NCBI GenBank assembly: GCA_045535075.1 | Contig: JAZSKX010000007.1 | Coordinates: forward strand, 64,001-128,000 | Direction: 5' to 3' | Origin: Candidatus Spyradenecus sp. | GTDB taxonomy: Bacteria; Verrucomicrobiota; Verrucomicrobiia; Opitutales; UBA953 | Length of the DNA: 64,000 nt | In this document: positions 1 through 64,000 of the stretch, one piece after another | How the letters are laid out: each line of letters starts with the position of its first letter | Position numbering within the stretch: position 1 is the stretch's first letter | Position numbers and translations under genes: made by a program | The notes under the pieces: generated by a model | Told to the model about the DNA's origin: nothing | Databases searched by the model: none | Seen by the model: only the letters and a program-made list of their open reading frames with translations

Positions 1-152
1 TAACGCGCGATGTGAGGCGGAATATTTTCCCGAAGACGGGGATTTTTCGGATATTCTACAGTAGTCGGAAGTAATTGCCCGTGAAATAAGGATTGTTTTC
101 GCAGGGAGTTCGGTATTAAAATCCGAGATTTCCAGTTTTACTCAAAAACCTT

Positions 153-1931
153 ATGTCAAAATCAACCTCACTCTATAACAAATACCTGCTCTTTATCGCA
201 GGACTCGGCGGATTGCTTTACGGGATCGACGTCGGCGTTATTGCCGGTGCGCTTCCGTATCTGCAGGCGACGACGGACTACACGCCCGGCCAGCTCTCGA
301 CGGTGGTCGCGGCGGTTTTGCTCGGCTCGGTGCTTTCCTCGCTTTTTGCGGGAGCGCTTTCCGATTTGTTCGGGCGCAAAAAAGTGATGCTCCTCGCGGG
401 CGTCTGCTTCGTGCTTTCCGTTCCGGTGATTTGCTCGCCGTTCGGCTTTGAAGCACTCGTTCTCGGGCGTATTCTCCAAGGCGCGGCTGCCGGGCTCATC
501 GGCGTTGTCGTTCCGCTTTATCTTGCGGAATGCCTCACGGCGGACAAGCGTGGCTTCGGCACGGGAATGTTCCAGTTCATGCTCACGGTCGGACTCGTTT
601 TCGCGGCGGTCGCCGGGATTATTTGTGCGGAATACGTGGACGGAGTTGAAACGGCGGAATACGCGACGGTCGCGGACAAAGCGTCGGCGATTTTCGCTGC
701 GAAAGACTTGGCATGGCGCGCTATTTTCTGGATTTGTGCAATCCCGGGCGTGATCTTCACGGTCGGCGCGCTTTTCATTTCCGAATCCGCCCGCTGGCTC
801 TACGGCAAGGGTAAAACGGAAGCCGCTCTTAAGGCTCTTGAGCGTTCCCGCGGTCCGGAACAGGCGAAAATCGAACTCGCCGGGATGGGCGCAGACAAGG
901 CGGAAGAAACTTCCGTCGCCGAAGAAGCCGACAAGCCGAAGGATTCTCTTTTCCAGAAAAAATACATTGTCCCGTTCGTTCTCGCCGTCGTTATTCTCGC
1001 CTGCAATCAGGCAACGGGCGTGAACTCCGTGCTCGCTTACATTGTTGACGTGCTCAAGCAGGCCGGGCTCGAAGGCTCACTCGCGAATCAGGGCGACCTC
1101 GTCGTTAAGATTCTGAACATGGTCATGACGATTTTCGCCATGATTCTTGTTGACCGCAAGGGGCGCAAGTTCCTCCTCACACTCGGGACTTCCGGAATTA
1201 TCGTCGGTTTGCTCGGCGTTGCGTGCCTTTTCCTCAATTCGGAACGCAAGATGGTCGACTGCTCCGAAAAGTTCCGCTTCAGCTCCGTCACGAAGCTTGA
1301 AACGACGGTAAACGCCGAAGGTAAGGAAGTTTCGGAAAATGTGGTTTATGAAGCGGATATGCCGCTCCCGGCTCCGGTTCTCGCAAAAATTGCCAAGCTC
1401 GACGACGTTAAGGACTTCCAAGTCAAAATCGTTTACACGCAAGGCGAAGAAAAAGTCATCAAGACGATTATCGCCAAGCAGGATTCGCCGGTTGAAGACA
1501 TCACGTTCAAGGTGAAGCAAACGAAGAATGACGAAGGCACGGAAGTGCTTCCCTTCAATGTGGAATCCATCGAAGTCGGACCGCTCCCGAGCGCGCTCAA
1601 CGGCTGGCTCGTTACGTTCTTCTTCGCGATCTTCATTGCGTCGTTCGCGGTCGGACCGGGCGTTTGCGTTTGGCTTGCGCTCTCCGAACTTATGCCGAAC
1701 CGCATCCGCGCGATGGGGATGTCGATTGCGCTTCTGATCAACCAAGGGGTTTCCACGGTTATCGCGGGAACGTTTCTCCCGGTTGTCGGCAACTTCGGCT
1801 ACTCGACAATCTTCTTCTTCTGTGCGGGCTGCACGGTGATTTACTGGATTACCGCCGTGTTCTTCCTGCCGGAAACGAAGGGACGTACGCTCGAAGAAAT
1901 CGAAGCTTACTTCGAAGGCAAAAAGAAATAA
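153..1931 (+). CDS. MFS sugar porter (GalP/XylE/HMIT-like) with a large soluble insertion
   Basis: GGLLYGIDVGVIAGA, D-x-x-GRK repeats, PLYLAE, ESARWL, QATGVN, SELMP and PETKGRTLEEIE motifs; ~12 hydrophobic segments. Confidence 0.92.
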   Translation: MSKSTSLYNKYLLFIAGLGGLLYGIDVGVIAGALPYLQATTDYTPGQLSTVVAAVLLGSVLSSLFAGALSDLFGRKKVMLLAGVCFVLSVPVICSPFGFEALVLGRILQGAAAGLIGVVVPLYLAECLTADKRGFGTGMFQFMLTVGLVFAAVAGIICAEYVDGVETAEYATVADKASAIFAAKDLAWRAIFWICAIPGVIFTVGALFISESARWLYGKGKTEAALKALERSRGPEQAKIELAGMGADKAEETSVAEEADKPKDSLFQKKYIVPFVLAVVILACNQATGVNSVLAYIVDVLKQAGLEGSLANQGDLVVKILNMVMTIFAMILVDRKGRKFLLTLGTSGIIVGLLGVACLFLNSERKMVDCSEKFRFSSVTKLETTVNAEGKEVSENVVYEADMPLPAPVLAKIAKLDDVKDFQVKIVYTQGEEKVIKTIIAKQDSPVEDITFKVKQTKNDEGTEVLPFNVESIEVGPLPSALNGWLVTFFFAIFIASFAVGPGVCVWLALSELMPNRIRAMGMSIALLINQGVSTVIAGTFLPVVGNFGYSTIFFFCAGCTVIYWITAVFFLPETKGRTLEEIEAYFEGKKK

Positions 1932-2167: not shown

Positions 2168-5100
2168 ATGAACTCTTGTCCGATTTTCTCTAAGAATTTC
2201 TTGCTCGTTGCAGGGCTTCTTGCGGCCTCTGCGGGAACGCTTACCGCCGTTTCTCCGACGGAAGTTTTCAGCGATCCGTTAGTCAGTTATCAATGGCAAT
2301 GGCATCCGGACCAAGGCGGGATTAACATCGCTGATGTATGGGACAGCGGTGTCACGGGCGAAGGAGTTGTCATCGGGATTGCGGGATATTGGGTCGAACC
2401 GTTTCACGAAGACTTGAATGTTTCGACTTACAACCCGGGAACAAATTGGCAGACGGCGGATTTGAGTCAGGGCTTGAGCTATGACTTTAATCGGCCCGGC
2501 ACATCGCCGAAAGAGACGGACGATCAATTTTATCCGAATGAAAACGCGCACGAAACCGCCGGCGCCGGTATGGCGGGAGCTGTCGGCGGGAACGGAGTCG
2601 GGCTCGTCGGGGCCGCTCCGGGGTCAACGATTGCGGGGTTGCGAGGTCATTATAGAGCCGAGACGTTTTTGTGGGCTTCCGGAGTTGCGGCGGACGGAAC
2701 TTACCTCGGAGAGGCGGAGATTGACGTTAAGAATTTTTACCTGGGTTCGTTTTACGGCTATAGCGGAGATCTTTCGAAAGACTCAGTCGGAGAGTATTTG
2801 AATCTCGCGGCGCAAAACAATGTTGTTTTTACCTGTAGTGCGTATAATTCCCGCGGCGAATCCAACCACCAGTACGGATTCCCGTCGAACTGCGGTTGGT
2901 TGCCGGAAGCCAATCATGCTTCCGTGATCAATGTTGCCGCGACGGACAAGTTCCGGCGCTACGCGAGTTTTTCCGATTACGGCGCCAATGTCTTTATTGC
3001 GGCTCCGGGAAATGCTGTGCCGTCGACGGACAGAACCGGAGATCTCGGCTATACCTCCGGATATTCCTGGGCTCCGAGCGGAAACTACTACTCTTTCGGC
3101 GGGACTTCCGCTGCCGGACCGCTTGTCGCCGGCGTGATGGCTTTGGGAAAGCAGGTTTGCCCGGACATGGATGCGCGTTGGGCAAAGCACGCGCTCGCAT
3201 GGAGTTCCGGACACAACGAAGCTCCGAACATTGATCCCGACGAGTTTCACTACGCATGGGAATCGCCTACCGGATTTTGGCAGAAAAACAACGGCGGCTA
3301 TTGGTTTAATAACAACTACGGTTTCGGCTTAGTCGATCCCGTAAAATTCGTTGATGCAACTCGCGACATTCTCTATACGACGACGGGAACGACGTTTACG
3401 CAGACTTCGGCGGGAATTGAAAAAATCGCTTCAACCGAAACCGCTACGGGAACGTTGCGTACGGCGGAGTTCTCGGTAAAAATCGGCGACGGTGCTCTGG
3501 CGCAAAACATCGAAACCGTTTCCGTGCATGTGGAATTCTCCGATGCCGCTCAGGTCAACTTGGATTTGACAACGCTGAAAGTTACTTTGATCGCACCGGA
3601 TGATGCCAAAAGTATCGTTATTCAAGGTTCGGTCGGCGATGCTTCAACGACGGCGGATGCTAAACACTTTTCCGGATACAAGTTCCTCTCAAATGCGTTT
3701 TGGGGAGCAAGCTACGGAGCCGAAAACTGGCGCGTTCTCGTCGAATATTCCGTCGACGACGGTGTTAATACGACGGATTGGGTTTCCGTAGACTCCGTGG
3801 AATTTACGCAGGGCGAAGTAATTTTTGAAGCCGACGACGTTGCAATCGCGGAATCCGAATCCGTAAATGCGGATATGCTTGCGCTGGAAAGCGGAAGCTT
3901 TTCCGTCGCGGGAACGATGCGTGTTGAAGATTCCGTTTCGATTAACGCGGGAACTTTTGAACTCGCGGAAAGCGGAACGCTCGCTGCCTACACGGGCGGT
4001 GTTTTCGGTGCCGAAAAAGGTGTGAAATACACACAAAACGGCGGGAGTGCGACGATTCGCGGCGACGCAACGTTTAAGCGCGGTGCAACGCTCAATGGCG
4101 GTACGCTCAATCTCTACAAAACGCTTGCCGCGGGAACGGGAATGACTGTTAACGGAGGCACGCTCAATGTCGGCGCAACCGGTACGGAAATTTCGGTCGG
4201 GGCGGCGCTTCCGGTTTACGGAGGTAAGCTTGTTTTGGCGGAAAATGCAATGTTCGGGACTGCTCTGAATGTTGAAGGCGGCTTCGTCGAAATTAACAAC
4301 GGCGCGACGCTCTCGAAAAAAGTCGCTGTCGGCAAAAACGGCGAAGAGGCTATCGGCGGTTCGCTTTCGGCGGCGGGAACGATTGTCGCAAAATCCGGAA
4401 TCGAATTCGCGGGAAAAGCAACGGGAACATTTGCAAAAGATACGGCGATTAAAGAAGGCGGTCTGACGCTTTCCGGCGGAAGTGTTGTTTGGAGCGGGAT
4501 GCTGACGGTTGACGGCGGTATCACAGTCAGCAGCGGTGCGCTGGGAAGTACGGCAGGAAATATTGCCTCTTATGCCGGAAACGTGACAAATGCGGGAACA
4601 CTGGGGATTGCTGCGAATGCTTCCGTGGTCTTTGCTGAAGGCGCAACCTTCATAAACGGAGCAAACAAAATTGATTTGGCGAGCGGCTCTGCGTTGCGCT
4701 TGGAGTCCGGAATCAGCGGAAACAATCTCGCGGGAACTCTGAGCGGTTCGGGAAAACTGACGCTGACGCAAGACACCGATTTCGATGCGAATGTTGATGC
4801 ATTTGCGGGAACGCTTGCAATTGAGAACGGAGTGCTGTCTGTCGGCGCGGGTGCAAATTTGAATCTTGCAACGAATGCTGTTTTGGAACTCGGTGTCTCC
4901 GATGCGGCGGATTGGCTTGCTGTAAACGTCGCAAGCGGCGGAAACGTCAGCTTCGCGAAAGGTTCGGGGTTGATTGTTAATTTTACCGGGGTCTTGGGCG
5001 AAACGTCGGAATTTACCGTTATGAACTGGGCAGACGATGCATCGGTTTCCGGCTTGTTCAACTTGGAGCGCGGCGATGGAATTGCGCTTTATGTCGGCGG

Positions 5101-8100
5101 AGTTGAGTATGCAAACGATAATTGGACCTTTGAGGTTGCCCAAAATTCCCTGAAATTAAAGCTCGATGTCGTTGTCGTCGACATCAGGGAAGCGCAGCAA
5201 AACGCAGTCCTTTCCGATGAGGGCTATATCGCGAATTTTGCCGTGTCGCTCACGGAATACAGCGGGATCGTTTCCGGAAAAGGAGACGTGAATTCCGTCG
5301 GAACATTGGCGTTTTCCGGGAATTTTGCCAATCTTTCCGGCACGGTTTATGTCAACGCCGGAAGTTTCACCATAAAGGAAGCCGCAACGCTTGGGTCCGA
5401 AAATTATGTTGTCGCCGCTGCCGGAACTTTGAGTCTCGAAGGGACTCGTGATTTCGGACAAAGCGTTGCCGGCGCGGGAGCGCTTGTAACCAACGGTAAT
5501 ATTACCCTTAGCGGAGATGCAAGCGCCCACACGGGAACGACGAAAGTTGAATCCGGAACCTTGACGATTGCCCAAGGCGCAAAGCTTGGAACCGGCGCTT
5601 TCAACGTCGCGGGAACGTTGGGATTGGTCGGAGACCGCACGTTCAACAACGCAAGCACCGGAGCGGGAACGCTTGATGTTATTTCCGGAACGACGACGTT
5701 TACGACGAATGTCGGTACCGAAAACTTTGATATTTCCGAAAATGCCGCCGCAAGTTTTGAAGGCACGGCAACCGGTTTTTCCGGGAAACTCACGGGCGCG
5801 GGAACTTTGGCGACCGCGAAGGATTTTGTCTTGTCGGGCGATGCTTCCGGTTTTGAAGGGAAAACTTCCGTCAAGGCGGGAACGTTTACCGTCACCGAAG
5901 CCGCAAGCTTAGGGACCGGAGATTTTGAAGTTGCGGGAACGCTTGCGCTGAAGGGAAATCGCACTTTCGGCAATACGACATCCGGCGCGGGAACACTTAG
6001 TGTTGCTTCGGGAACGACAACGTTCATGAAAAATGTCGGCACTGCAAAACTGGATATTTCCGCAGATGCCGTCGCAAAATTTGATGCCGTTGCCGGATTC
6101 GCGGGAACGCTCACGGGCGCGGGGGCGCTTACGACCGAAAAAGATTTTTCTTTCTCCGGCGACGCTTCCGGATTTAGCGGAAAAACCTCCGTTACGGCGG
6201 GAACGTTCGCCGTCGCCGCCGGCTCGAAATTAGGAAGCGGCGTGTTTGAAGTTGACGGCGTTTTGGCGCTAAGCGGCGACCGAACCTTTGAAAATACGAC
6301 GAGCGGGAAAGGCTTGATTGATCTCGTTTCCGGAACAACCGCTTTTGCAACGGCTGTCGGCGTGGCAAAGTTGGATATTTCCGAAAATGCCGTCGCAAAG
6401 TTTGAAGGCGACGACGCCGGCTTCTCGGGAACACTCACGGGCGCGGGAGCACTGACAACGGCAAAAGATTTTTCGCTCTCCGGCGACGCTTCCGGATTTA
6501 GCGGAAAAACCTCTGTTACGGGGGGGACATTTGCCGTCGCTTCCGGAACCGAATTAGGAACCGGCGATTTTGAACTCGCGGGGAATTTGGATTTGGACGG
6601 GACGCGTCGTTTTTCCAATAAAATTTCCGGCGACGGGGCGCTGGTCGTGCGCGGCGATGTAATATTTGAAGCCGATGCATCGGCGTTTTCCGGGAAAACG
6701 CAAATCGAGCAGGGCGGGAAACTCACGCTCCCGCAATCTTCGGAAATCGGAAGTGAATTTGTCGTTTACGGAGAGTTAAACCTCGAAGGTACGAGGACTT
6801 TTGCCAATACAACGAGCGGAAGCGGAACGATTGCGCTCGCTCCCGCATCGAATCTTGCGTTCGCAAATAATGTCGGAGCAAAAACAATTTCCGTTGCAGA
6901 AGGAGCGACACTTCGAGGCGGAGTTACGATGACTTACGGTGCAGGATCGAGAATCGTGATTGCCGGAGAATTGCAGCTCAATCTTGATAAGGGGGAAACC
7001 GTCGTACTCAATGGCGGGCGCGCGGTCCTTGAAACTTCGTCGTCTTTGAATTTCCTCACGAAAAAACCGGTGGCAATGAAATTGCGAGACGAAACCGGAG
7101 TCGACAAATTGGCGGACGGCGAGACGGTTTCGATTTTCACGGACGGCATCGTCGAAGGCGATGTGCTTGGCTTCCTTGAAAACGACGCAATTCTGTCGGA
7201 CTTTGCCGCGCGTTCCATGGTGGTTTACGATCTTTCACACGGCTTAAATGTTCGTGTCGCTTCCGGAATTGCCGAAAATGCGGATGTCGACACCGCCGGC
7301 TTGAGCGAAAGCTATTTGGCGTGGAGCATGAAAGATGCGCGAAATACTTTCGACTCCATTCAAAGCGGATTTTGGAACATCGACGATCCGGTACTTTCCG
7401 GCGGGAACGATCCGCTCTTGCGGGCGATTTTGGGCGGAGATTCCTCTGCGGCGCGCGCTGTGCTCGACCGCCTTTCCCCGAAAAGCTACGCCGCAATGGT
7501 GGCGATGGCGGCGGAGTCTTTCCACTCGGACGTTCGCAGTGTCGCCTCCCGATTGGAGCAGCGCCGCTACGACAGATTTGCGGAAAATGCCCGTTGGGAA
7601 TTCTTCGCACAAGCGCAATTCAGTTCATTTGAAACCGACACGAAAACGGATTCGGCGATGTTTGACTTCGATACGAACGGCGTGTTCGCGGGAGCTGATT
7701 ACAAAACAAGCGCCGAAACGATTGTCGGTATCGCCTTCGGAGCTGACAACGGCGAGGCGAAAATCCACAACGGCGGCGGCAAAATCGAATCTTCCGATCT
7801 TCGTTTTACGGCTTATTTCGGAAAAACATTCAACGACCGTTTTTATCTGAACGCGGGAACGCAACTCGGCTATGCAAATTACGATGTAAAACGCAAAACC
7901 GACTACGGGAACGCCCGAGGTGATACGCACGGGCTGAGCGGCGGCGTTTTTGCCGAAACCGGCGCACTGCTGACTTTGTCCGAAAAGGAAAATATCTTCG
8001 CAATGCCCTATATCGGTTTGGCATACACGCATTCTCAAATTGACGGATTTGAAGAAGACGGAACCGAAAAAGCGTTCGATGCGGATACCATTAAGGGCGA

Positions 8101-8416
8101 CAGCCTGCGTGCGCGTATCGGGTGCGGCTTCTCGTGGGGATTTGACCTCGCGGGAACGGATTGGCGCCTGGGATTGGATCTCGCATATTCGCACGATTTC
8201 CTCGGCGACGAAGTCGATGTCGAAGTTATGTCGAAGGGCGGAGATTTTATTGCGGAAACGGCAAAAGCGCTTCCGGAAGATGTTTTCTCCGCCGGGCCGA
8301 CGCTGAACGTAAATCTCAATTCGACCATGAGCATTTACGGCGGCTACACGTTTAGCACGGGAACGGACGCTTATACGAATCACAGCACCAATCTCGGTTT
8401 CCGTATGCGTTTCTAA
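2168..8416 (+). CDS. Autotransporter with N-terminal S8 (kexin/furin-like) peptidase domain, P-domain-like region, repeated beta-helical passenger and C-terminal beta-barrel
   Basis: Signal peptide; GINIADVWDSGVTGEGVVI, HET, FSDYG, GTSAAGPLVAG and NNNYGFGLVD subtilase motifs; G/T/A-rich repeats; barrel ending in ...GFRMRF. Confidence 0.88.
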   Translation: MNSCPIFSKNFLLVAGLLAASAGTLTAVSPTEVFSDPLVSYQWQWHPDQGGINIADVWDSGVTGEGVVIGIAGYWVEPFHEDLNVSTYNPGTNWQTADLSQGLSYDFNRPGTSPKETDDQFYPNENAHETAGAGMAGAVGGNGVGLVGAAPGSTIAGLRGHYRAETFLWASGVAADGTYLGEAEIDVKNFYLGSFYGYSGDLSKDSVGEYLNLAAQNNVVFTCSAYNSRGESNHQYGFPSNCGWLPEANHASVINVAATDKFRRYASFSDYGANVFIAAPGNAVPSTDRTGDLGYTSGYSWAPSGNYYSFGGTSAAGPLVAGVMALGKQVCPDMDARWAKHALAWSSGHNEAPNIDPDEFHYAWESPTGFWQKNNGGYWFNNNYGFGLVDPVKFVDATRDILYTTTGTTFTQTSAGIEKIASTETATGTLRTAEFSVKIGDGALAQNIETVSVHVEFSDAAQVNLDLTTLKVTLIAPDDAKSIVIQGSVGDASTTADAKHFSGYKFLSNAFWGASYGAENWRVLVEYSVDDGVNTTDWVSVDSVEFTQGEVIFEADDVAIAESESVNADMLALESGSFSVAGTMRVEDSVSINAGTFELAESGTLAAYTGGVFGAEKGVKYTQNGGSATIRGDATFKRGATLNGGTLNLYKTLAAGTGMTVNGGTLNVGATGTEISVGAALPVYGGKLVLAENAMFGTALNVEGGFVEINNGATLSKKVAVGKNGEEAIGGSLSAAGTIVAKSGIEFAGKATGTFAKDTAIKEGGLTLSGGSVVWSGMLTVDGGITVSSGALGSTAGNIASYAGNVTNAGTLGIAANASVVFAEGATFINGANKIDLASGSALRLESGISGNNLAGTLSGSGKLTLTQDTDFDANVDAFAGTLAIENGVLSVGAGANLNLATNAVLELGVSDAADWLAVNVASGGNVSFAKGSGLIVNFTGVLGETSEFTVMNWADDASVSGLFNLERGDGIALYVGGVEYANDNWTFEVAQNSLKLKLDVVVVDIREAQQNAVLSDEGYIANFAVSLTEYSGIVSGKGDVNSVGTLAFSGNFANLSGTVYVNAGSFTIKEAATLGSENYVVAAAGTLSLEGTRDFGQSVAGAGALVTNGNITLSGDASAHTGTTKVESGTLTIAQGAKLGTGAFNVAGTLGLVGDRTFNNASTGAGTLDVISGTTTFTTNVGTENFDISENAAASFEGTATGFSGKLTGAGTLATAKDFVLSGDASGFEGKTSVKAGTFTVTEAASLGTGDFEVAGTLALKGNRTFGNTTSGAGTLSVASGTTTFMKNVGTAKLDISADAVAKFDAVAGFAGTLTGAGALTTEKDFSFSGDASGFSGKTSVTAGTFAVAAGSKLGSGVFEVDGVLALSGDRTFENTTSGKGLIDLVSGTTAFATAVGVAKLDISENAVAKFEGDDAGFSGTLTGAGALTTAKDFSLSGDASGFSGKTSVTGGTFAVASGTELGTGDFELAGNLDLDGTRRFSNKISGDGALVVRGDVIFEADASAFSGKTQIEQGGKLTLPQSSEIGSEFVVYGELNLEGTRTFANTTSGSGTIALAPASNLAFANNVGAKTISVAEGATLRGGVTMTYGAGSRIVIAGELQLNLDKGETVVLNGGRAVLETSSSLNFLTKKPVAMKLRDETGVDKLADGETVSIFTDGIVEGDVLGFLENDAILSDFAARSMVVYDLSHGLNVRVASGIAENADVDTAGLSESYLAWSMKDARNTFDSIQSGFWNIDDPVLSGGNDPLLRAILGGDSSAARAVLDRLSPKSYAAMVAMAAESFHSDVRSVASRLEQRRYDRFAENARWEFFAQAQFSSFETDTKTDSAMFDFDTNGVFAGADYKTSAETIVGIAFGADNGEAKIHNGGGKIESSDLRFTAYFGKTFNDRFYLNAGTQLGYANYDVKRKTDYGNARGDTHGLSGGVFAETGALLTLSEKENIFAMPYIGLAYTHSQIDGFEEDGTEKAFDADTIKGDSLRARIGCGFSWGFDLAGTDWRLGLDLAYSHDFLGDEVDVEVMSKGGDFIAETAKALPEDVFSAGPTLNVNLNSTMSIYGGYTFSTGTDAYTNHSTNLGFRMRF
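5470..6700 (+). repeat. About 3.5-4 intragenic tandem repeats of ~321-324 bp (~107-108 aa) in the autotransporter passenger
   Basis: SGDAS(G/A)..G.T unit recurs at ~5510, 5834, 6155 and 6479; the last two share the identical run TCCGGCGACGCTTCCGGATTTAGCGGAAAAACCTC. Confidence 0.85.
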
Positions 8417-8451: not shown

Positions 8452-8486
8452 GCGTTCCCGCGGGTGTTTCTGCGGGAACGTTTTTT
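8452..8486 (+). terminator. Terminator built from the inverted motif pair
   Basis: GCGTTCCCGCGG-GTGTT-TCTGCGGGAACG-T6. Confidence 0.85.
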
Positions 8487-20611: not shown

Positions 20612-20678
20612 ACATTGCGCCGCGCAGGGCAGGCGTTTTTGCCTTAGAAAGGCGAAATTTCTGTTCTCTTTTCCAAAC

Positions 20679-20720
20679 AAAAAAGCGTTCCCGTGACGAT
20701 CTCGCGGGAACGCTTTTTTT
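20679..20720 (+). terminator. Terminator built from the inverted motif pair
   Basis: A6-GCGTTCCCGTGA-CGATC-TCGCGGGAACGC-T7. Confidence 0.9.
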
Positions 20721-23446: not shown

Positions 23447-23463
23447 ATGTGTTCTGTTGTATT

Positions 23464-24756: not shown

Positions 24757-24759
24757 GGT

Positions 24760-49370: not shown

Positions 49371-49838
49371 ATGAAAGCATGGGCGTTAATTCTCCCTTTT
49401 GCGTTCGTTGCCGCGACCGCGTCGGCAGAGCGCGTCGTTAAAGTATCGGACGGCGATACCATCACTGTTTTGGACGAAAACAACAAACAGATTCGCGTCC
49501 GGCTTTGGGGGATTGACGCTCCCGAGTCAAAACAGGCTTACGGAAAAGCCGCAAGACGCCGCCTCGCCGATAATATTGCGGGAAAAGATGTGCGTTTGGA
49601 CGTTCGCGGGAAAGATCGCTACGGACGTTTGCTTGCTGTTGTTTGGCTTGGCGACGAAAATGAAAATCTCTTGCAGGTTCGGGACGGCTTCGCGTGGCAC
49701 TATGTTTACTATGCCAAAAAAGCGACGGAATATGCAGAGGCGGAGAAATATGCGCGGGAACGGCGCTTGGGGCTTTGGAAAGATTCGAATCCGGTCCCGC
49801 CTTGGGAATATCGTCGCAGAAAAAGAAAATCCGATTGA
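49371..49838 (+). CDS. Secreted thermonuclease (SNase/YhcG-like)
   Basis: Signal peptide; DGDT, RLWGIDAPE, DRYGRLL, GLW...P..PWEYR. Confidence 0.92.
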   Translation: MKAWALILPFAFVAATASAERVVKVSDGDTITVLDENNKQIRVRLWGIDAPESKQAYGKAARRRLADNIAGKDVRLDVRGKDRYGRLLAVVWLGDENENLLQVRDGFAWHYVYYAKKATEYAEAEKYARERRLGLWKDSNPVPPWEYRRRKRKSD

Positions 49839-50137: not shown

Positions 50138-50809
50138 GACATACTCAATGAGCTAACGGCAGAAATTGAAAATGGCACTATCTCAACTGCAAAGGGATTG
50201 CGCGAGCTTGCTTCTTCACTGCGGATGCAGAAAGGAGGAAGTGCCATATCTTATTATCGCATTAAAGAATGGAAACGATTTGCGCGATATGAGTCAGCTG
50301 ATAATTCAAACGTTGGACGAAACGGGGAAACTTCCTACGAGGGAGAGAATTATCAGAATGGTGGCGTTTATGGTGAACAACCCAGAATAACTTCGCTTCA
50401 ACACAACGGCGTAATTTACGGCTACTTTGACCCTGTGCGCAGGGAGTTGCACTTGAACAAGGACTTTGCGGATTTTGACACACCTATTCACGAGTGGACG
50501 CACGGTTGGTGGGCGTGGCTCAAAGGCGAAGACCCGCGAATGATTGAACGCATTGTCGAGCTGATGAAGCAGACAAAAGAGTATCAACGTTTCCGTATGG
50601 AAGCGATGACCGACAAGAAGTCTGTTTATCACGGGCTTAGCGAAGAGGAACTTGCCGAAGAGGTGTTTGCTTGCCTTACCGGAAAGCGCGGCGAGGACAT
50701 CATGGAGCAAGAGGGGCTTGCGATGTGGACGAAAGGGCAGACGCGAGAGCCATTTCAGCTTCAAGTCAATTGGTCGAAGCCGATTTTTATAAATTCGGGT
50801 AGCCTTTAG
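50138..50809 (+). pseudogene. Fragment of a large polyvalent protein with a zincin-like metallopeptidase (HExxH) domain
   Basis: Open frame with no convincing start; GVIYGYF...LHLN....DTPIHEWTH.WW and EEVFA.LTG; atypical codons; no copy of the host motif. Confidence 0.6.
50172..50390 (+). CDS. Small hypothetical protein nested in an alternative frame of the metallopeptidase fragment
   Basis: 72-aa ATG-initiated, protein-like amphipathic ORF (MALSQLQRDCASLL...NNPE). Confidence 0.45.
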   Translation: MALSQLQRDCASLLLHCGCRKEEVPYLIIALKNGNDLRDMSQLIIQTLDETGKLPTRERIIRMVAFMVNNPE

Positions 50810-51200
50810 GGGCGATAAGCCGGATTCTGTGCCGTGTGCCGCTTGCGCGGGAACACGGTCGCATTCATTTCTCTAACCGCGGAAATTTGCGTTCCCGCGA
50901 TTTCGCCTTGCGGCGATGCGACAGACCCGTGAGCATCGGACGGGCAACCCGCTCACCTATTTTGTCTTGCACCGGATTGGGTTTGTCGCGCCTCGTTCGT
51001 TGCCGTTCGAGCGGTGAGCTCTTACCTCGCCGTTTCACCCTTACCGGCGTTGCCGCCGGCGGTTTGTTTTCTGTGACACTTTCCGTCAACGCGCCTTGCG
51101 ACGCGCCGCCCTCGCTTTCACGAGGAATCCTGCCCTGCGGTGTCCGGACTTTCCTCCCGGAAACTTGCGCTTCCGAGCGAATGCGTGCACCCTAAAGACT
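50801..51200 (-). ncRNA. rnpB: RNase P RNA, bacterial type A
   Basis: Minus strand GAGGAAAGTCCGG, GGGTGAAACGGCGAGGTAAGAGC and ACAGAATCCGGCTTAT; P1 pairing AGTCTTTAGGG/CCCTAAAGGCT defines the ends. Confidence 0.95.
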
Positions 51201-53903: not shown

Positions 53904-55733
<1,830 letters not shown>

Positions 55734-55792: not shown

Positions 55793-55985
55793 TTGACAAA
55801 GCAGGGCGGGAACGATTGAATTAGAAAAATTTATGGCAAACGCGGCTCTCCATGAAAAGAATTTCATGAACGCTTCCGGAAACGAAGCGCCCGCCATGCA
55901 GTTTTCAGCTCAAACTTTTTCAGGTTTGAGCTTTTTTATGATTTTCTCAAAACACAGCTCCGAACTAACCTTTTTTCTCATTTAG
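55793..55985 (+). promoter_or_regulatory. carB leader: TTGACA box, multi-hairpin structure, intrinsic terminator (55907-55937) and 50-codon leader ORF (55833-55985)
   Basis: AGCTCAAAC...GTTTGAGC-T6 hairpin ~60 nt upstream of the carB ATG on the same strand. Confidence 0.55.
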
Positions 55986-55996
55986 AAAGCATTACT

Positions 55997-58900
55997 ATGT
56001 CTATACGCGACGATATTAAAAAAGTCATGATCATCGGCTCCGGTCCGATTGTAATCGGGCAGGCCTGCGAATTTGACTACTCGGGAACGCAAGCGTGCAA
56101 AGCGCTCCGCGAATGCGGCTACGAAATCGTGCTCGTCAACTCGAACCCGGCAACGATTATGACGGACCCGACCGTTGCCGACGTTACTTACATCGAGCCG
56201 CTCAACGAAGAACGCCTCGAGCAAATCATCGCCAAAGAACGCCCGGACGCGCTTTTGCCGAATCTCGGCGGACAAACCGGCTTGAATCTCGCCATTGAGC
56301 TCAACAAAAAAGGAATTTTGGAGAAATACGGCGTCAAGGTTATCGGCGTAAACCTCGAAGCCATCGAGCGCGGCGAAGACCGTCTTATTTTCAAAGAAAC
56401 GATGTCGCGCATCGGCATCGACATGCCGCGCAGCGATATTGCCTACACGGTTGATGAAGCGGTGAAAATTTCCGAAAAACTCGGCTTCCCGCTCGTCGTC
56501 CGCCCGGCTTACACGATGGGCGGCGCCGGCGGCGGGCTTGTCTACAATATGGACGAGCTCAAAACCATCGTCGCGCGCGGCTTGCAGGCTTCGATGACGA
56601 GCCAATGCCTCATCGAAGAATCCATCCTCGGTTGGGAGGAACTCGAAGTCGAAGTCGTTCGCGACTCGACCGGAGCACTCATTTCCGTTTGTCTCATCGA
56701 AAACGTCGATCCCGTCGGCGTGCACACGGGCGACAGCTTCTGCACGGCACCGATGATGACCGTTCCCGCGGACGTTCAGGCGGAGCTTCAGCGGCAGGCG
56801 TGGAAAATTATCGACACGATCGGCGTTATCGGCGGCACGAACGTCCAGTTCGCGCGCAACCCGAAAGACGGGCGCATCGTCATCATCGAAATCAACCCGC
56901 GCACCTCGCGTTCGTCCGCGCTCGCGTCGAAGGCAACGGGCTTCCCGATCGCACTCATTTCGGCAAAACTTGCAAGCGGCATGACGCTTTCCGAAATCCC
57001 GTATTGGCGCGACGGCTCGCTCGACAAATACACGCCGTCGGGCGATTACGTCGTTGTCAAATTTGCGCGTTGGGCATTTGAAAAATTTAAAGGCGTTCAG
57101 GACAAGCTCGGCACGCAGATGAAGGCGGTTGGCGAAGTCATGAGCATCGGCAAAAACTACAAGGAAGCTTTCCAAAAAGCGATTCGTTCGCTCGAAAACG
57201 GGCGCATGGGCTTGGGCTTTGCGGCGGATTTTAATTCCAAAACGAAGGAAGAACTTCTCGAAATGCTGCGCGAAGCCAACAGCGAACGCCATTTCGTGAT
57301 TTACGAAGCCTTCCGCAAGGGCGCGACGATTGAGGAAATTCAGGCGAAAACGCAAATGAATCGCTGGTTCCTCGAACAGGCGAAAGAACTCGTCGAGCTC
57401 GAAGAAAAACTTTTGGAAAGCAAGGGCAGCGTTCCCGCAGACGCGCTTTTGATTCAGGCCAAAAAAGACGGTTTCGCGGACGCGTATTTGGCAAAAATCC
57501 TCGGTGTTCCCGAAAAAGAAATTCGCGAAAAACGCATCGCGCTCGGCGTGGTCGAACGCTGGGAAGCCGTTCCCGTCAGCGGTGTCGAAAACGCCTGTTA
57601 CTATTTCTCAACGTATGCGGACAGCGTTCCCGTGACGGAACTTCCCGCGAGCACGAAGAAAAAAGTTATGGTGCTCGGCGGCGGACCGAACCGCATCGGG
57701 CAAGGCATTGAGTTTGACTACTGCTGCTGCCACGCCGCGATGGCGCTGCGCCGCATGGGCTACGAAACCATCATGGTCAACTGCAACCCGGAAACGGTTT
57801 CGACCGACTACGATACGTCTGACAAACTTTATTTCGAGCCGCTCACGCTCGAAGACGTGCTCGCGATTTACGAACACGAAAAACCGGAAGGCGTGATTGT
57901 GCAGTTCGGCGGGCAAACGCCGCTCAACCTCGCGCGCAAACTCGCAGAAGCCGGCGTGAAAATTCTCGGCACGAGTATCGACACCATCGATACGGCGGAA
58001 GACCGCGATCTTTTCCGCCTGATGATGCAAAAGCTCGAAATCCCGATGCCGGAAGCGGGCATGGCGATCAACATTGAGCAGGCTCTCGAAATCGCCCACA
58101 AAGTCGGCTACCCGGTGATGATTCGTCCGTCCTTCGTGCTCGGCGGGCGCGGTATGGAAGTTGTTTACGACGACGCGGCACTCAAAGAATACGTCAGCAA
58201 GGCAATCGGCGTGACGGAAGATGCGCCGCTTCTCATCGACCGCTTCCTGCAAAACGCGCTTGAATGCGAATGCGACGCGCTTTGCGACGGGAACGACGTT
58301 TTCATTCCTTCCGTTATGGAACACATCGAGCTCGCAGGTATTCACTCCGGCGACTCGGCTTGCGTCATTCCGCCGGTGCACATTCCCGCGAAGCAATACG
58401 CGGATATCGTCGATTACACGCGCAAAATCGCACACGAGCTGAAAGTCGTCGGCTTGATGAATATGCAATACGCCATCGAAAACGGCAAAGTTTACGTTAT
58501 CGAAGCGAACCCGCGCGCCTCGCGTACGGTGCCGCTGGTTTCCAAGGTTTGCAATATTCAAATGGCAGGCGCGGCAACGGAACTCATGATGGGCAAAAAG
58601 CTTGAAGAGCTGAATTTGAAGCCCTTCGTCGCGGGAACGCACTACGGCGTGAAAGAAGCCGTTTTGCCGTTTGACAAATTCCCGGAAGTCGACCCCGTTC
58701 TCGGGCCGGAAATGCGCTCCACGGGCGAAGTGCTCGGCATCGCGCCGGACTTCGGTACCGCGTTTTTCAAGGCGCAGGAAGCCGCGGGAACGCAGCTCCC
58801 GACCGAAGGCACGGTTTTGATTACGATCGCCGAAAAGAACGAACAGGCGCTCGAACTCGGACGCGGCTTCGTCAAGCTCGGCTTCAAAATCAAAGCAACG

Positions 58901-59209
58901 GCGGGAACGTATGATTTCTATACGAAAAACGGTATCGCGTGCGAATTGATTAAAAAACAGCACGAAGGACGCCCGAATATCGTGGACGGCATCGTCAACC
59001 GGGAAATTTCGCTCATCGTCAACACGCCGGTCGGCAAACGCTCGGTTATCGACGATTCCTACATCCGCAAAAACGCCATCAAGCTCCGCGTGCCGTATTT
59101 CACGACACTCGCGGCGGCACTGGCAACGGTGCAGGGCATCGCCGCCGTCAAGGCGGGAACGGTCGATGTCGATTCGCTCCAAGCCCACCACGGCAAATTA
59201 AAAGCTTAA
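55997..59209 (+). CDS. carB: Carbamoyl-phosphate synthase large subunit
   Basis: [30 protein letters not shown], duplicated ATP-grasp halves, C-terminal MGS domain. Confidence 0.97.
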   Translation: [1070 protein letters not shown]

Positions 59210-59225
59210 AGCTTAAAAAATGTAC

Positions 59226-59267
59226 AAAAAAACGTTTCCGCGACTTTGATCGCGGGAACGTTTTTTT
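59226..59267. terminator. Bidirectional terminator between carB and skp built from the motif pair
   Basis: A7-CGTTTCCGCGA-CTTTGA-TCGCGGGAACG-T7. Confidence 0.9.
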
Positions 59268-59285
59268 GTGGATGAAAATTCGAAC

Positions 59286-59879
59286 TTATTGAGCGGATTT
59301 CTTAGAGGTTTTGTCCTCTTTCTTTTCCGCCGGGAAGAGTTCGGCGAGGCGTTCCTGAATCGCCTTGGTGATGTCGGCTTCGGGAGTGAAGTAGACAACG
59401 GTATTCGGTGCAGTATTCAGAACGATATCGATTTTATTTGCCTTTGCGTATTCCTGAATGACGGGAACGATTTCTTTGATGATTTTGCTGAGTTCGGTAT
59501 TCCGTTTATCTTCGATGGCCTGCTTGGCGGCTGCAAGAGCTTCAGAGAGCTCCTGGCGCTCTTTGAGGATTGTTTTGTTGAGTTCGACCGCTTCAGCTTT
59601 TGCCTTTTCCTTAGCGGATTCGCTGTTCATCGGATTTTCGATTTCCTTGACGAGTTTTTGCAGCGCTTCCGCTTTTTTCTGCAATTCGGCAACGGAACTT
59701 TTTTCCTGTTCCTGAACGAGGAGGATGTCGGCTTTCAATTTTTCAAGCGCGATCGGCGTTTTGGAGAAGCTTTGAATAACGGCATCCATGTTGATGATCG
59801 CCGTTTTCGTGGCTTGTGCGAAAAGCGTTCCCGCGGAAATAGCGAGAATCGCGACGAGTGTGGTGAGTTTTTTGAACAT
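59286..59879 (-). CDS. skp: OmpH/Skp periplasmic chaperone
   Basis: Signal peptide, KTAIINMD, long coiled coil, DIVL...VVY....DIT; directly downstream of bamA; start set to ATG 59879. Confidence 0.85.
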   Translation of the reverse strand: MFKKLTTLVAILAISAGTLFAQATKTAIINMDAVIQSFSKTPIALEKLKADILLVQEQEKSSVAELQKKAEALQKLVKEIENPMNSESAKEKAKAEAVELNKTILKERQELSEALAAAKQAIEDKRNTELSKIIKEIVPVIQEYAKANKIDIVLNTAPNTVVYFTPEADITKAIQERLAELFPAEKKEDKTSKKSAQ

Positions 59880-59895
59880 AATTTTTGTATAATAA

Positions 59896-62553
59896 TTAGA
59901 AACTGGTTCCGAAGGAAATGTTAAAACGCATTCCGTCGTCATTTTCTTCCGATGTGTGAATCGGGAAGCCGATGTCGAGGTTGAGCAGGGCTCCCCAAAC
60001 AAGCATGCGGAAGCCGAATCCGACGTCGTCATTCCATTCCCGCGGCGAGAAATCGAAAGAATCCTCATTGACGAAGCCGCCGTCGTAGAACAGGGCGAAG
60101 CGCAGTTGCTCCAACAGTTTAATCGTATATTCTGCGGAAATGAAAGCGCCGGAGTCGCCGCCTAGCGGTTCGTCTTCTACGAAGGGCCCGACGTGCGCGT
60201 AGCGGAATCCTCTCAGGTTGTAAGGCCCGCCGTATTTAATTTTCTCAAAGAAAGGAACATAGCTGTCGCCGAATGCGTGTGCGGTATCGGCGCGCATGCG
60301 TAATTTAACGGTTTGATCCTGATAATCAAAAATCGGGAACCATCGGGCGGCATCGAGGCGCATTTTATAGTAGGTACAATCGCCGCCGAAGGGACCGCCG
60401 ACTAATTCGTTTGTGAAGACGATTTTCGTTCCCGAGTTCGGGAAGAGGTAGCTGTCGCGCGTGTCGCGGGAAAGACTGAGCCCGCCGCGGGAAAGCAATG
60501 TGTAGCCGGCCTCGTCCCAAATAAATTGCGGAACATCCCACTCGATGTCTTTGATTTCGTAATTGTCGATTTTGTAGTACAGCGTTCCGTAGACGCGCTC
60601 AAAGAGGCGGCGGCGGCCGTAGATTTTTACGCCGGCGTCGACGGTGTTGTAGCTTGAGCTGACATAGGAGTCGGATTTGTAGTAGGCGTCATATCCGACG
60701 GCGATTTCGCGTCCGAAGACCATGGGTTCTTCGAACGATTGTTCGATTGTCGAAGAATTCGTGCCGACTTGAATGCGGAAGCGGAATTTTTGCCCGCCGC
60801 CGCGGAAATAATTGCGATAGTTAAAGATGTCGAAATTGGATTCGGAAAATTCGATGTACGCCGAAAGACTTTCGACAGTTGAAAATCCGCCGCCGAAATT
60901 GAACGATCCCGTCGGAGCTTCGGTAACGCTGACGACCAGATCTTTTTGCCCCGGAATCGGGGTATCTGCCGGGCGGAGGGAGATCGTGGATTGCCCGTTC
61001 GGTTGGCGGAAATAGCTCGTATTTTTTAGGCGCGATTCAGAGGTTTTCATGCGCACCATGTCGAAGACTTCACCGGGAGCGAGGACGAGTTCCCGCAGGA
61101 TAATCTCCGATTTTGTAGTCGTGTTGCCTTCGATTTTTACCGAACGCAGGTAAGATTTTTCGCCTTCGACAATTTTAAATTTAACAACGACTTTTCCCGT
61201 GTCGACATCCGGTTCCCGTGTTACCGAAACACGACAATTCAGATAGCCGACCTGTCCGTAGTAATCACGAATTTTTTCCGTCGCGACTTCGACGGCGCGC
61301 GGCGAGTAAGCCATGCCCGGGAAAAGCAAATCGTGGTAAACATCGTCCCCGCGACGCACGCCGCGCGGCGAGTACTGAGCGAGCATTGCAACAATCGCCT
61401 GCTGAGAAAAACGTGCGTGCTCTTTACCTAAGTCGTTCCCGCTGATTTGAATTTCGTCGACAAAGTAGCGCATGCCTTCCGAAATCGTGATTTCAAGCGG
61501 CAAATCGCCTTCCGTTTCGGTGTTGTTGACGAAGCTGTAGCCTTCTTCGAGTTCTTCCCGCGGTTGCCCGTAAACCTGGACATCGAGGAAGCCGTTATTT
61601 TGATAGAAATTCGTCAGTTCGACCAAGTCCCGCTGATAAGTGGCGTAATTGAATCGTCCGAGGTCGCGAATCGGAGAAAATTTCAGGAAGCGGTTACCCG
61701 GCCATTCCGAGAAATCGAAGGTGTAAGCCCATGTCGATGTTTGCATGACATTACGCAATGTCATGTCGTCAAAGCTTTTGTTCCCGATAAATTTGATTTC
61801 GGTAACGCGGGTATTTAGGTTTTCTTCGATAACAAAGGTTACGGTTGCCGTGCCTTTTTCCTTGTCGACTTTGATTTGCGGAGAAACTTTGACGAAGGGG
61901 AATTTGGCTTCGTATTTTTTCTTAATTTTTTCGGCGGATCGCATGACGAGGCTACGATCCAACGGCGCGCCGACCGTCATGCCGGCATCCGTACACTCTT
62001 TGATGAGTTTGCCGCGGAAAAATCCGATAACGGCGTTTTCGGAATCCGGTTTCGTCGAATCGTAATCGTTGACAATGATTTGTTCGTACTCCGATTGCGC
62101 TTCGGGGGTTCCGCCTTCCCATTCTTTATTGCCTTCGAAATAAATGCCGACGAGGAGCGGGCGCGCGACGTAGGAAATCTGAATGTCGAGCGTTTCTTGC
62201 TCCGAATCCAAAATCGGGTCAACGGTAACAAAGTCAAAAAGCCCTGTTTCGAAGAGCGATCGGATGGTTTTGGATTGTTCGGGGCGCGTGTATTCGCTTC
62301 CGGGTTTGAGATAAACATGTGCGGCGATAAGCGCTTCGTCGATTTCGGGACCGCCTTCATTTTTGAAAATGAGATTGCGGACGAAAAGTTTTTTAGCGGC
62401 TTGGCGGGGTGCGGCGTTTGTGCGCGCGTTTCCGCCGGTCGCGGGTGTTGCCTGCTGTGCGGAAAGCGGAAGCGTTCCCGCGGCGATGAAAAATGCGAGT
62501 GTTCCCGCGAATGCGGCGAAAGATTGGGAAAAGACTGGCTTGGCTGGACGCAT
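59896..62553 (-). CDS. bamA: Outer membrane protein assembly factor BamA
   Basis: POTRA repeats (GN..T...I.REL), GSFNFGGGFS, LRGF motif, C-terminal GTSF. Confidence 0.93.
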   Translation of the reverse strand: MRPAKPVFSQSFAAFAGTLAFFIAAGTLPLSAQQATPATGGNARTNAAPRQAAKKLFVRNLIFKNEGGPEIDEALIAAHVYLKPGSEYTRPEQSKTIRSLFETGLFDFVTVDPILDSEQETLDIQISYVARPLLVGIYFEGNKEWEGGTPEAQSEYEQIIVNDYDSTKPDSENAVIGFFRGKLIKECTDAGMTVGAPLDRSLVMRSAEKIKKKYEAKFPFVKVSPQIKVDKEKGTATVTFVIEENLNTRVTEIKFIGNKSFDDMTLRNVMQTSTWAYTFDFSEWPGNRFLKFSPIRDLGRFNYATYQRDLVELTNFYQNNGFLDVQVYGQPREELEEGYSFVNNTETEGDLPLEITISEGMRYFVDEIQISGNDLGKEHARFSQQAIVAMLAQYSPRGVRRGDDVYHDLLFPGMAYSPRAVEVATEKIRDYYGQVGYLNCRVSVTREPDVDTGKVVVKFKIVEGEKSYLRSVKIEGNTTTKSEIILRELVLAPGEVFDMVRMKTSESRLKNTSYFRQPNGQSTISLRPADTPIPGQKDLVVSVTEAPTGSFNFGGGFSTVESLSAYIEFSESNFDIFNYRNYFRGGGQKFRFRIQVGTNSSTIEQSFEEPMVFGREIAVGYDAYYKSDSYVSSSYNTVDAGVKIYGRRRLFERVYGTLYYKIDNYEIKDIEWDVPQFIWDEAGYTLLSRGGLSLSRDTRDSYLFPNSGTKIVFTNELVGGPFGGDCTYYKMRLDAARWFPIFDYQDQTVKLRMRADTAHAFGDSYVPFFEKIKYGGPYNLRGFRYAHVGPFVEDEPLGGDSGAFISAEYTIKLLEQLRFALFYDGGFVNEDSFDFSPREWNDDVGFGFRMLVWGALLNLDIGFPIHTSEENDDGMRFNISFGTSF

Positions 62554-64000
62554 CAGAAATTCGGTTCGCTGATGTTGGTGGCGGGAGTTTCGAAACGGGT
62601 GATGTTGCTGTGGAAATGTAGAGGGATGTCTCCGGTCGGCCCGTTGCGTTGCTTGGCAATGATGAGAACGCGTTCCCGCAAGTCGCGCTGGCGTTCTTCC
62701 TCGTCTTCCGTCGGAGATTTTTTTTGTCCGCCGCGCTTGATGTCGATGAGCATGATGACGTCGGCGTCCTGTTCGATGGAGCCGGATTCGCGCAGGTCGC
62801 TCGCGCGCGGCTTGCGGTCTTCTTTGTCGGAATCGCGGTTCAGCTGGGCGAGAGCGATAATCGGGATCCCGAATTCTTTTGCCATTGCTTTGATGGAGCG
62901 CGAAGCTTCGGCGATTTGTTGTTCGCGCGGCATGCGGGAATCCGTGCCGTTAATGAGCTGTAAATAGTCGATGATAATCAGCGAAAGCGGCGTGCGTGCG
63001 TGGATGCGGCGTGCCTTGGCGCGAATTTCCATGATAGTTTGTCCGCCGAGGTCGTCGATGATGAGCTTTCGCTTTTCGTAGTCTTTCGACATTTCGTAAA
63101 GCTTTTGAACCTGCTCGGCAGTGCCGAATCCTTTTTGGAGATTTCGCAAATTGACGCGGGATTTTGACGCCAGCAAACGTTGCATCAAATCCTCTTTCGT
63201 CATTTCGAGACTGAACATCAGGACGGCGCGCGGTTTTTTCCCAGCGGCTTCCCGCTTTTTGTCGAACAGCGCGGCTTCAATAAAGTTGAGCGCGATGGAG
63301 GTTTTCCCCATACCCGGACGTGCAGCGACGACGATCATTTGCCCGGGATGAAAACCGAAAGTCATTTGGTCAAGCTGGGTAAATCCGGTCGGAACGCCGT
63401 GAATCGCGCCGCGGTTTTTTTCCATTTGACGTAAAATTTCGAGCGTGCGTGCGACGAGACCGCCGACCTGATCGGTGCTTTCTGCCGTCTCTTGGATGTT
63501 GTCTCCCGCGATCTCGAAGAACGATTTTTCGACGCGGTCGAGAATCATGCGGATGTCATCGCCGTCCGAAAATGCGCGCTCAACGGTTTGCGTCGCCGTC
63601 GTGATGAGTTTTCGTCGGAAATATTTTTCTTTAACGATTTCGAGCCAGTGCGGCGCGTGAACGGTTGTGGCGACTTTATTTTCGAGTTCCCGCAGGTAAA
63701 TGTGCCCGCCGGCGGCTTCAAGCTTGCCCAACTCGGTCAGCTTTTCGAGCAGGGTAATAATGTCAATGCCTTTGCCCTCGTTGCTGAGTGCGGAGAGCGC
63801 TTCGTAAATGACCTGATGTTCGGTCCGAAAAAAAGTTTCGGGAACGACTTTTTGAGTTTGGCAGTCTGCGAGAATGTCGCCTCCGCCGTCCAAGATAATT
63901 GCGGAGAGCAAGCCTTGTTCGGCTTCTTCGTTGTGCGGCGGAATACGATTCGCGAAAACGGAGGCATCGGAATCCGCGTGCCGGTTGCGGGAGCGCGTGT
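62553..64000 (-). CDS. dnaB: Replicative DNA helicase (5' end lies beyond the window)
   Basis: PPHNEEAEQGLL, AARPGMGKT, FSLEM, IDYLQL, LAQLNR, DLRESGSIEQDAD, AKQRNGPTG; frame open to the window edge. Confidence 0.96.
   Translation of the reverse strand, partial: TRSRNRHADSDASVFANRIPPHNEEAEQGLLSAIILDGGGDILADCQTQKVVPETFFRTEHQVIYEALSALSNEGKGIDIITLLEKLTELGKLEAAGGHIYLRELENKVATTVHAPHWLEIVKEKYFRRKLITTATQTVERAFSDGDDIRMILDRVEKSFFEIAGDNIQETAESTDQVGGLVARTLEILRQMEKNRGAIHGVPTGFTQLDQMTFGFHPGQMIVVAARPGMGKTSIALNFIEAALFDKKREAAGKKPRAVLMFSLEMTKEDLMQRLLASKSRVNLRNLQKGFGTAEQVQKLYEMSKDYEKRKLIIDDLGGQTIMEIRAKARRIHARTPLSLIIIDYLQLINGTDSRMPREQQIAEASRSIKAMAKEFGIPIIALAQLNRDSDKEDRKPRASDLRESGSIEQDADVIMLIDIKRGGQKKSPTEDEEERQRDLRERVLIIAKQRNGPTGDIPLHFHSNITRFETPATNISEPNF

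Follow-up and report, generated by a model that had tools for sequence, protein, structure and literature searches.

A short asymmetric word pervading the genomes of a gut Verrucomicrobiota genus, a candidate DNA uptake sequence

DNA uptake sequences have been described only in Neisseriaceae and Pasteurellaceae, as far as the available text of a survey of 177 genomes goes; there they occupy up to ~2% of the chromosome, recur as intergenic inverted-repeat terminators and are frame-biased in their coding copies, with ComP as the known and ComN as a predicted receptor (10.1101/2025.10.24.684340). A second report likewise predicts that the minor pilin ComN is the receptor of the Pasteurellaceae uptake signal sequence (USS; 10.1101/2025.06.16.659825). 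Another abundant word, the cyanobacterial HIP1 (GCGATCGC), is described as a palindrome and the target of dedicated methylases (PMC13756078). Here we analysed a 64-kb stretch of DNA (G000:C8:64001-128000, hereafter the window) within the 1.95-Mb, 18-contig, 52% GC genome G000 of Candidatus Spyradenecus sp., which an earlier note, made from the letters of the window alone, had considered to be crowded with a new uptake sequence. The word, with the consensus R-CGGGAAC-G, is a candidate for such a signal, and we weigh this reading against its alternatives.

Like the Neisseriaceae DNA uptake sequence (DUS; GCCGTCTGAA and its dialects, read by the minor pilin ComP), the word is short, non-palindromic and present on both strands in genes and spacers; it likewise forms inverted pairs that are predicted terminators, is specific to a clade, is depleted from mobile elements and occurs together with type IV pilus, ComEC and DprA genes. 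Unlike the DUS, to which it is unrelated in sequence and phylum, it has a sharp core of 7-8 bp rather than 10-12, a density of 2.6-5 per kb rather than ~1, no accompanying ComP_DUS domain and no dialects in sister genera. With the Pasteurellaceae USS (9-bp core) it shares a short core of ~9 bp, frame-biased coding occupancy, synonymous accommodation and terminator pairs, but it has no AT-rich flanking segments, a higher density and no enrichment of in-core one-mismatch variants. HIP1 is also an 8-mer found in genes and spacers, conserved within its clade and of unsettled function, and its density is comparable or higher; the present word, in contrast, is asymmetric.

A short, sharp word on both strands and in every frame

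The word extends over the whole window as a single field.

1-64000, both strands: field of the word R-CGGGAAC-G, with 219 copies of its sharper core CGGGAAC, 170 of CGGGAACG and 140 of GCGGGAAC

The earlier note had hand-counted about 135 exact 8-mers, most of them said to extend further. We indeed counted 140 exact copies of GCGGGAAC/GTTCCCGC (83 forward, 57 reverse), found the word at all 13 coordinates quoted, and observed that 114 of the 140 reach GCGGGAACG; TCGCGGGAACGC occurs nine times. One hundred dinucleotide-preserving shuffles of the window gave a mean of 5.0 copies of GCGGGAAC (standard deviation, s.d., 1.9; largest 10), a 28-fold excess, and GCGGGAACG exceeded Markov expectations of orders 3 to 1 by 17-53-fold genome-wide, so that the ~50-fold enrichment first estimated was of the right order of magnitude. 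CGGGAACG reached 72 times its mononucleotide expectation in the window, and it is the commonest 8-mer of G000, with 5,159 copies in 1.95 Mb (2.6 per kb), alongside 4,032 copies of GCGGGAAC, 3,244 of GCGGGAACG and 6,528 of CGGGAAC.

A logo built from 6,921 copies of GGGAAC in G000 has C at position -1 in 94% and, at -2, G in 60% and A in 25%. On the 3' side G follows at +1 in 77%, with a weak C at +2 (45%); positions -3/-4 show a weak pyrimidine preference, and the composition further out is background. The consensus is R-CGGGAAC-G(c), short and sharp, with random flanks, and it is not a palindrome (CGGGAACG differs from CGTTCCCG). The impression that one-mismatch variants are common applies to the edges of the word, where A at position 1 is still enriched 38-fold, G at position 7 11-fold and A or T at position 9 11-17-fold, but not to its inside, since changes within CGGGA drop to background (0.1-3-fold) in genome-wide variant counts.

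Genes of G000 were called with a simple longest open reading frame (ORF) caller; its 1,546 ORFs take up 91% of the genome. Among the 5,159 copies of CGGGAACG, 86% lie within genes; sense copies occupy frames 0, 1 and 2 in 423, 1,445 and 768 cases and antisense copies in 361, 303 and 1,162. The remaining 697 are in spacers or at gene edges, that is, 13.5% of the copies in 9.2% of the DNA. This distribution agrees with the initial description of copies on both strands, in several frames, in coding DNA, in spacers and in an RNA gene, here that for RNase P RNA. In a synonymous-codon shuffle, repeated 20 times within each gene with every protein and the per-gene codon usage kept, 317 sense and 194 antisense copies were expected (maxima 341 and 218), against 2,640 and 1,829 observed; a codon-order shuffle (n = 20) gave 91 and 77. 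The observed numbers are above both codon shuffles, implying that codon choice and peptide content are both bent towards the word. The enrichment thus survives, at 8-9-fold, the codon- and protein-preserving null that the earlier note had suggested as a control.

Chi and KOPS sites are also over-represented 8-mers, read by DNA-processing machines, but they are strongly leading-strand-skewed and far less enriched. CGGGAACG lies on the locally G-rich strand in 2,588 of 4,722 cases (54.8%), and in spacers the ratio is 332:309 (51.8%); the slight excess stems from a preference for the sense strand within genes (54-63%). A Chi- or KOPS-like word is therefore ruled out, and the replichore skew that had been proposed as a check turned out to be absent. 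The density over 86 segments of 20 kb was 2.66/kb (s.d. 0.55), and that of CGGGAAC was 3.1-3.9/kb across the larger contigs (>25 kb), with contig C14 (24.8 kb, 2.46/kb) named as the exception. Two giant genes, G000:C5:125845-140217 and G000:C8:185333-198142 (4,791 and 4,270 aa as called), hold 69 and 64 copies, almost all one-stranded, and are the cause of the only strongly one-sided 20-kb segments (9:66 and 11:55).

Clade limits, gain and decay of the word

The source of the DNA had been guessed to be Opitutales, rightly: its closest matches among public records bear the names Opitutales, Candidatus Spyradosoma and Candidatus Spyradenecus and all come from animal guts. Enrichment of the word extends to every one of the 19 genomes of the genus. 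GCGGGAACGC occurs 1,614 times in G000 and 138-3,301 times in the 18 other genus genomes, every one of them, against 8-35 for a reversed control word. It is at background in 12 genomes from 12 other families of the order (0-49) and in 62 genomes from four sister genera of the same family (0-64). Four deep-branching species of the genus, with 47-58% GC, have an identical logo and 3.5-5.0 copies of CGGGAACG per kb, and in G009 the word makes up ~4% of the sampled DNA. Species of low density (G001, G002 and G013, ~0.6/kb; G014, ~0.3/kb) carry the unchanged word and no variant, and the nearest relatives of G000 have a density fourfold lower than its own. Two candidate variants were rejected. CCGGAAC, an apparent recurrent G-to-C change in G001, was not enriched. 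In the sister-genus genome G031, CGGGTACG, one base off the word, is the top 8-mer (33 in 100 kb, ~7-fold), but its logo is loose and its flanks have a three-base, codon-like period, so that its enrichment probably stems from codon usage and does not mark a dialect.

To follow the word through time, we compared 16,253 orthologous bases among six genomes (G000, G004, G018, G001, G002 and G013), comprising carB, bamA-dnaB, topA, an SNF2 helicase gene and two other segments. Those within the window are 55793-63910, 53914-55646, 8566-11150, 22776-24055 and 24758-27297, the first being the following feature.

55793-63910, unstranded: carB, bamA and dnaB region, part of the six-genome orthologous comparison

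Judged by PilQ identity, G001, G002 and G013 are the closest to G000 (91%), with G004 and G018 at 80%. The orthologous bases hold 50 word sites in G000, 40 in G004 and 52 in G018, and 13, 19 and 23 in the low-density G001, G002 and G013. Fifteen sites common to G000 and the G004/G018 pair are gone from all three low-density genomes, 11 are found in G000 only, and two are private to the low clade; of the 36 sites shared across the basal split, G000 retains 34 and G001 retains 11. Most changes left the proteins alone. Relative to G001, 9 of the 11 G000 gains are synonymous (for example CGC to CGG in Arg-Glu-Leu, GGC to GGG in Gly-Asn and GTN to GTT in Val-Pro), and for 11 of the 15 clade losses the G013 protein is unchanged, typically through GCG-GGA-ACG to GCC-GGC-ACC.

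A rough hand estimate, based on ~96 one-off precursor sites in 16 kb and ~8.5% divergence per branch, gives a neutral expectation of ~1.6 new copies per branch, with ~54% of old copies kept. By this rough measure the low clade behaves about neutrally, and G000 gains ~7 times more copies and loses far fewer. The gain and retention in G000, compared with the neutral-like low clade, therefore indicate a lineage-specific process, acting at the DNA level, that writes the word and retains it; in one sub-clade, G001/G002/G013, this process is off. A search for a gene lost in G013, using conserved flanks over 710 kb (about a third of the genome), found the genomes too rearranged for the purpose. The one clean G013 deletion in those 710 kb corresponds to G000 C5:12769-17463, with sugar or lipid modification enzymes, and has no bearing either way.

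Terminator-like hairpins, mobile DNA and other features of the window

In G000, neighbouring copies 13-22 bp apart show a strong enrichment of the arrangement GTTCCCG...CGGGAAC, and none of the opposite one. Among 207 such pairs, 132 are intergenic and 75 are bordered by an A-run and, at the opposite end, a T-run. Hairpin pairs of the form GTTCCCG-N3-18-CGGGAAC number 180, against 43 in the opposite arrangement; 123 of the 180 (68%) lie at most 120 nt past a stop codon (median 27 nt), and such a pair stands at 149 of the 1,546 gene ends. From their position and predicted folding, inverted word pairs probably serve as transcription terminators. Only 5.5% of the copies in G000 are paired, and hairpins are therefore a use of the word and not its source. 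The share rises to 9.2% in the low-density G013, which means that pairs decay more slowly than single copies, as would be expected if only pairs have a function of their own. The window holds four pairs, with predicted stabilities of -28 to -33 kcal/mol.

1959-1984, unstranded: inverted pair GTTCCCG-N12-CGGGAAC between an A-run and a T-run, predicted -32.5 kcal/mol
8454-8479, unstranded: terminator-like inverted-pair hairpin 38 nt past the autotransporter gene, predicted -28.0 kcal/mol
20687-20711, unstranded: inverted-pair hairpin after the first Na/Pi cotransporter gene, predicted -27.8 kcal/mol
22629-22653, unstranded: near-identical inverted-pair hairpin after the second Na/Pi cotransporter gene, predicted -33.3 kcal/mol

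The first of these sits 28 nt past the stop of the ORF at 153-1931 and looks like a bidirectional terminator. The last two belong to a segment (18890-22653) in which a pair of paralogous Na/Pi cotransporter-PhoU genes stands in tandem, with a near-identical word-pair hairpin behind either gene; the duplication seems to have included the terminator.

Mobile DNA is poorer in the word. Two Mu-like prophages, at C8:~21-37 kb and C16:~182-222 kb, are depleted to 0.7-1.1/kb, which is still several times the composition expectation; their genes include those for Mu Gam-like protein, transposase A and B, terminase, portal, head protease and a phage methyltransferase. The longest stretches with no copy at all are of low GC and coincide with restriction-modification genes. 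Among viral contigs, 34 IMG/VR loci had the hairpin pattern and none was word-dense, with at most 1.2/kb including the hairpin itself. Contig G000:C18 (3,741 bases, 52% GC) has no copy where ~12 are expected, and may be a recent acquisition or foreign to the bin.

Two further features of the window show how single genes accommodate the word.

2168-8416, plus strand: subtilase-autotransporter gene, identified by Pfam, with 20 copies of GCGGGAAC, all sense
50800-51197, minus strand: RNase P RNA gene holding the word at 50848 and 50891, both near its 3' end

In the autotransporter gene, 18 of the 20 copies are in the frame GCG-GGA-AC(N), reading Ala-Gly-Thr (frames worked out by hand). In the RNase P RNA gene, one copy is in the stretch at the 3' end that aligns poorly to the family consensus and the other falls within 29 bases that are inserted into a variable helix and do not align; both parts being poorly conserved or inserted, the word has entered this structural RNA where its structure tolerates it. 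Near this gene, just ahead of a tRNA gene, a plus-strand frame at 49371-49838 encodes a staphylococcal-nuclease-like protein of 155 aa; a secreted nuclease of this kind could bear on the fate of extracellular DNA.

Uptake machinery, competing explanations and meaning

G000 has much of the equipment that an uptake signal would need. ComEC is present (G000:C11:3775-5487) with the Competence domain only and no metallo-beta-lactamase domain, and so is DprA. A pilM-to-pilQ operon (G000:C12:5931-15380), which includes the gene for the PilQ-type secretin, matches Amuc_1101 (PilM-like) and, weakly, Amuc_1100, families known from Akkermansia; a pilB-pilT-pilB-pilC cluster encodes two PilB-like ATPases, one PilT-like ATPase and PilC. 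There are six prepilin-like genes, namely a four-gene minor-pilin cassette beside ruvX, a fifth gene with an N-terminal methylation motif and a sixth with the leader motif only. The comEC, dprA and pilQ genes that the earlier note had proposed to look for are thus in place, but a small ComEA-like protein and a ComP-like minor pilin were not found. This machinery allows the uptake reading and is not proof of it. As side observations, ComEC is fast-evolving (63% identity between G000 and G001/G002/G013, compared with 91% for PilQ and 97% for PilB2/PilC), and two paralogous coiled-coil proteins are encoded downstream of the secretin in the pilM-pilQ operon. The stops upstream of PilB1 and PilT lie in over-long ORF calls, and a fast-diverging ORF of 194 aa upstream of pilB1 was set aside because it looks spurious by composition.

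The abundance of the word, its neutrality to strand and frame, its clade limits, its use in terminators, its depletion from mobile DNA and the contrast of gain and retention with decay are established here. A genus-specific word of this kind would be maintained in the DNA by a continuing, sequence-specific process blind to frame and strand, most likely the one to which Neisseriaceae and Pasteurellaceae owe their uptake sequences. In this process, competent cells would prefer word-bearing fragments, taken in by a type IV pilus/secretin, ComEC and DprA route, and recombination would spread word-bearing alleles by molecular drive. Copies would accumulate where they are cheapest: where a codon can change synonymously, where the peptide tolerates them, and in inverted pairs that are put to use as terminator stems. 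The uptake interpretation of the earlier note gains from the terminator pairs, the prophage depletion, the clade specificity and the synonymous maintenance, and it finds no backing in dialects or in a ComP_DUS pilin. On balance, we give R-CGGGAAC-G an even chance of being an independently evolved DNA uptake sequence, with biased uptake and a reader protein as its presumed agents.

Several observations weigh against this reading. No match to the ComP_DUS domain was obtained in G000 at E values up to 0.1, and PF12836 gave no small ComEA-like protein there, matching instead a protein of ~800 aa, RuvA and, weakly, a frame of 1,362 aa. The four clustered minor pilins are acidic (pI ~5.1), whereas DNA-binding pilins typically are not. 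All 31 genomes searched have intact ComEC, PilQ and DprA, among them the 12 from other families, which lack the word; as competence genes are equally present in word-less relatives, their presence says little and does not discriminate. The low-density relatives, too, keep ComEC, DprA, PilQ, PilM-P, PilB/T/C and the four minor pilins intact, and loss of these genes was accordingly rejected as the cause of the decay. The comparison for dialects suggested in the earlier note found none: all genus members sampled have the same word, and samples of 57-100 kb from four sister-genus genomes contain no comparably sharp word. The spacing, whose evenness was likewise proposed there as a check, is near random (coefficient of variation 1.09 over 6,511 intervals). 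The density of up to 5/kb is above that of any described uptake sequence, and we know of no report of natural transformation in Verrucomicrobiota.

A different origin would be a biased repair or DNA-modification system, HIP1-like or resembling very-short-patch (VSP) repair, in which a genus-specific enzyme would recognise CGGGAAC or sequences close to it and either convert them or guard them against mutation. Any drive at the DNA level would leave an identical static picture, with the word in all frames and on both strands, confined to a clade and scarce in recent DNA, and G000 does encode an MmeI-family enzyme, a complete protein of 1,020 aa (G000:C2:15704-18763) followed by a word-free 3.6-kb segment of 41% GC. 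The MmeI family reads asymmetric words of 6-8 bp with A second-last, as in CGGGAAC. Moreover, CGCGAAC is under-represented (0.4-fold), and five of the 11 gains in G000 turned CGC into CGG, although these are also synonymous arginine changes. However, MmeI-like genes were found in just 8 of the 18 other genus genomes, at 35-80% identity, and not in G003, G006 and G009, which rank among the densest; being so patchy and diverged, they are probably mobile. The other methyltransferases of G000, recognised by a catalytic-motif pattern plus Pfam in a list that may be incomplete, are one C5 enzyme, three type I HsdM and two Dam-like or phage ones in the prophages. C5 matches are patchy across the genus, not orthologous and absent from G005 and G009, and no PF01555 enzyme was found. 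Phosphorothioation, raised because the word contains GAAC, was rejected as DndC was over the cut-off in none of the 31 genomes. In contrast to HIP1, for which dedicated methylases are described, no methyltransferase of G000 proved to be conserved across the genus among those traced, the MmeI-like and the C5 enzyme. No transition variant is depleted as a VSP-type system predicts, and the word is not palindromic. We regard such a system as quite improbable.

The word might instead be the site of a genus-specific, chromosome-wide DNA-binding protein, acting in nucleoid organisation or, in a non-polar analogue of Chi, as a nuclease-shielding 'self' mark, with weak selection on each site. Its sharp core specificity, the strong retention of ancestral sites in G000 (34 of 36, against 11 of 36 in G001) and the depletion of prophages and restriction-modification islands would all suit this explanation, but selection would have to act on every one of thousands of sites, polarity and even spacing are lacking, unlike in Chi, KOPS and architecture-imparting words, no candidate reader was found, and sister species manage without most of the copies; it is unlikely, if worth keeping in view. 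The idea that the word is a mere stem of a spread terminator or REP-like hairpin, its coding copies being incidental, draws on the position of most of the 180 pairs just past stop codons, on short hairpin-like matches that recur across relatives and on the survival of pairs over singles in G013. It is contradicted by the small paired share, the 86% of copies in genes, the six frames and the random flanks; REP and MITE repeats are intergenic with a unit longer than the core, whereas the flanks here are background beyond 3-4 bases. This origin is highly improbable. It is hardly credible that codon usage, amino-acid composition or repetitive proteins produced the enrichment as a side effect: frame preferences and the Ala-Gly-Thr copies of the autotransporter gene point that way, but the excess over the protein- and codon-preserving null and the greater richness of spacers than genes contradict it, and the same word recurs at 47-58% GC with sister genera at background.

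In the literature, judged from titles and abstract openings, we found nothing on the word or on uptake sequences in Verrucomicrobiota. Among the matches listed, those to the 8-mer strings were primers or unrelated sites, and those to the genus name were surveys, taxonomy and one glycosidase study. Even without uptake, some sequence-specific process is rewriting 2-4% of these genomes in defiance of codon preference, and no described system explains it. The word is also a near-perfect marker, useful in binning the genus and in recognising foreign DNA within its genomes. The wider proposal, that this is the third independently evolved self-DNA uptake tag and the first outside Proteobacteria, in a gut Verrucomicrobiota genus, with a reader unrelated to ComP, a density 2-5 times that of known ones and a drive switched off at least twice (in G001/G002/G013 and in G014), falls a little short of an even chance in our judgement. 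The genus offers an evolutionary system in which drive-on species (3.5-5 copies/kb) stand beside close relatives with the drive off and neutral decay. These on/off contrasts provide a route to the reader gene and, together with a possibly cultured relative, make the uptake reading directly testable. If it is true, a third case of uptake sequences would be added from a different phylum, in gut commensals of livestock and humans; self-recognising transformation would have evolved repeatedly, and natural competence, hence a genetic tool, would be at hand in a group with almost no genetics.

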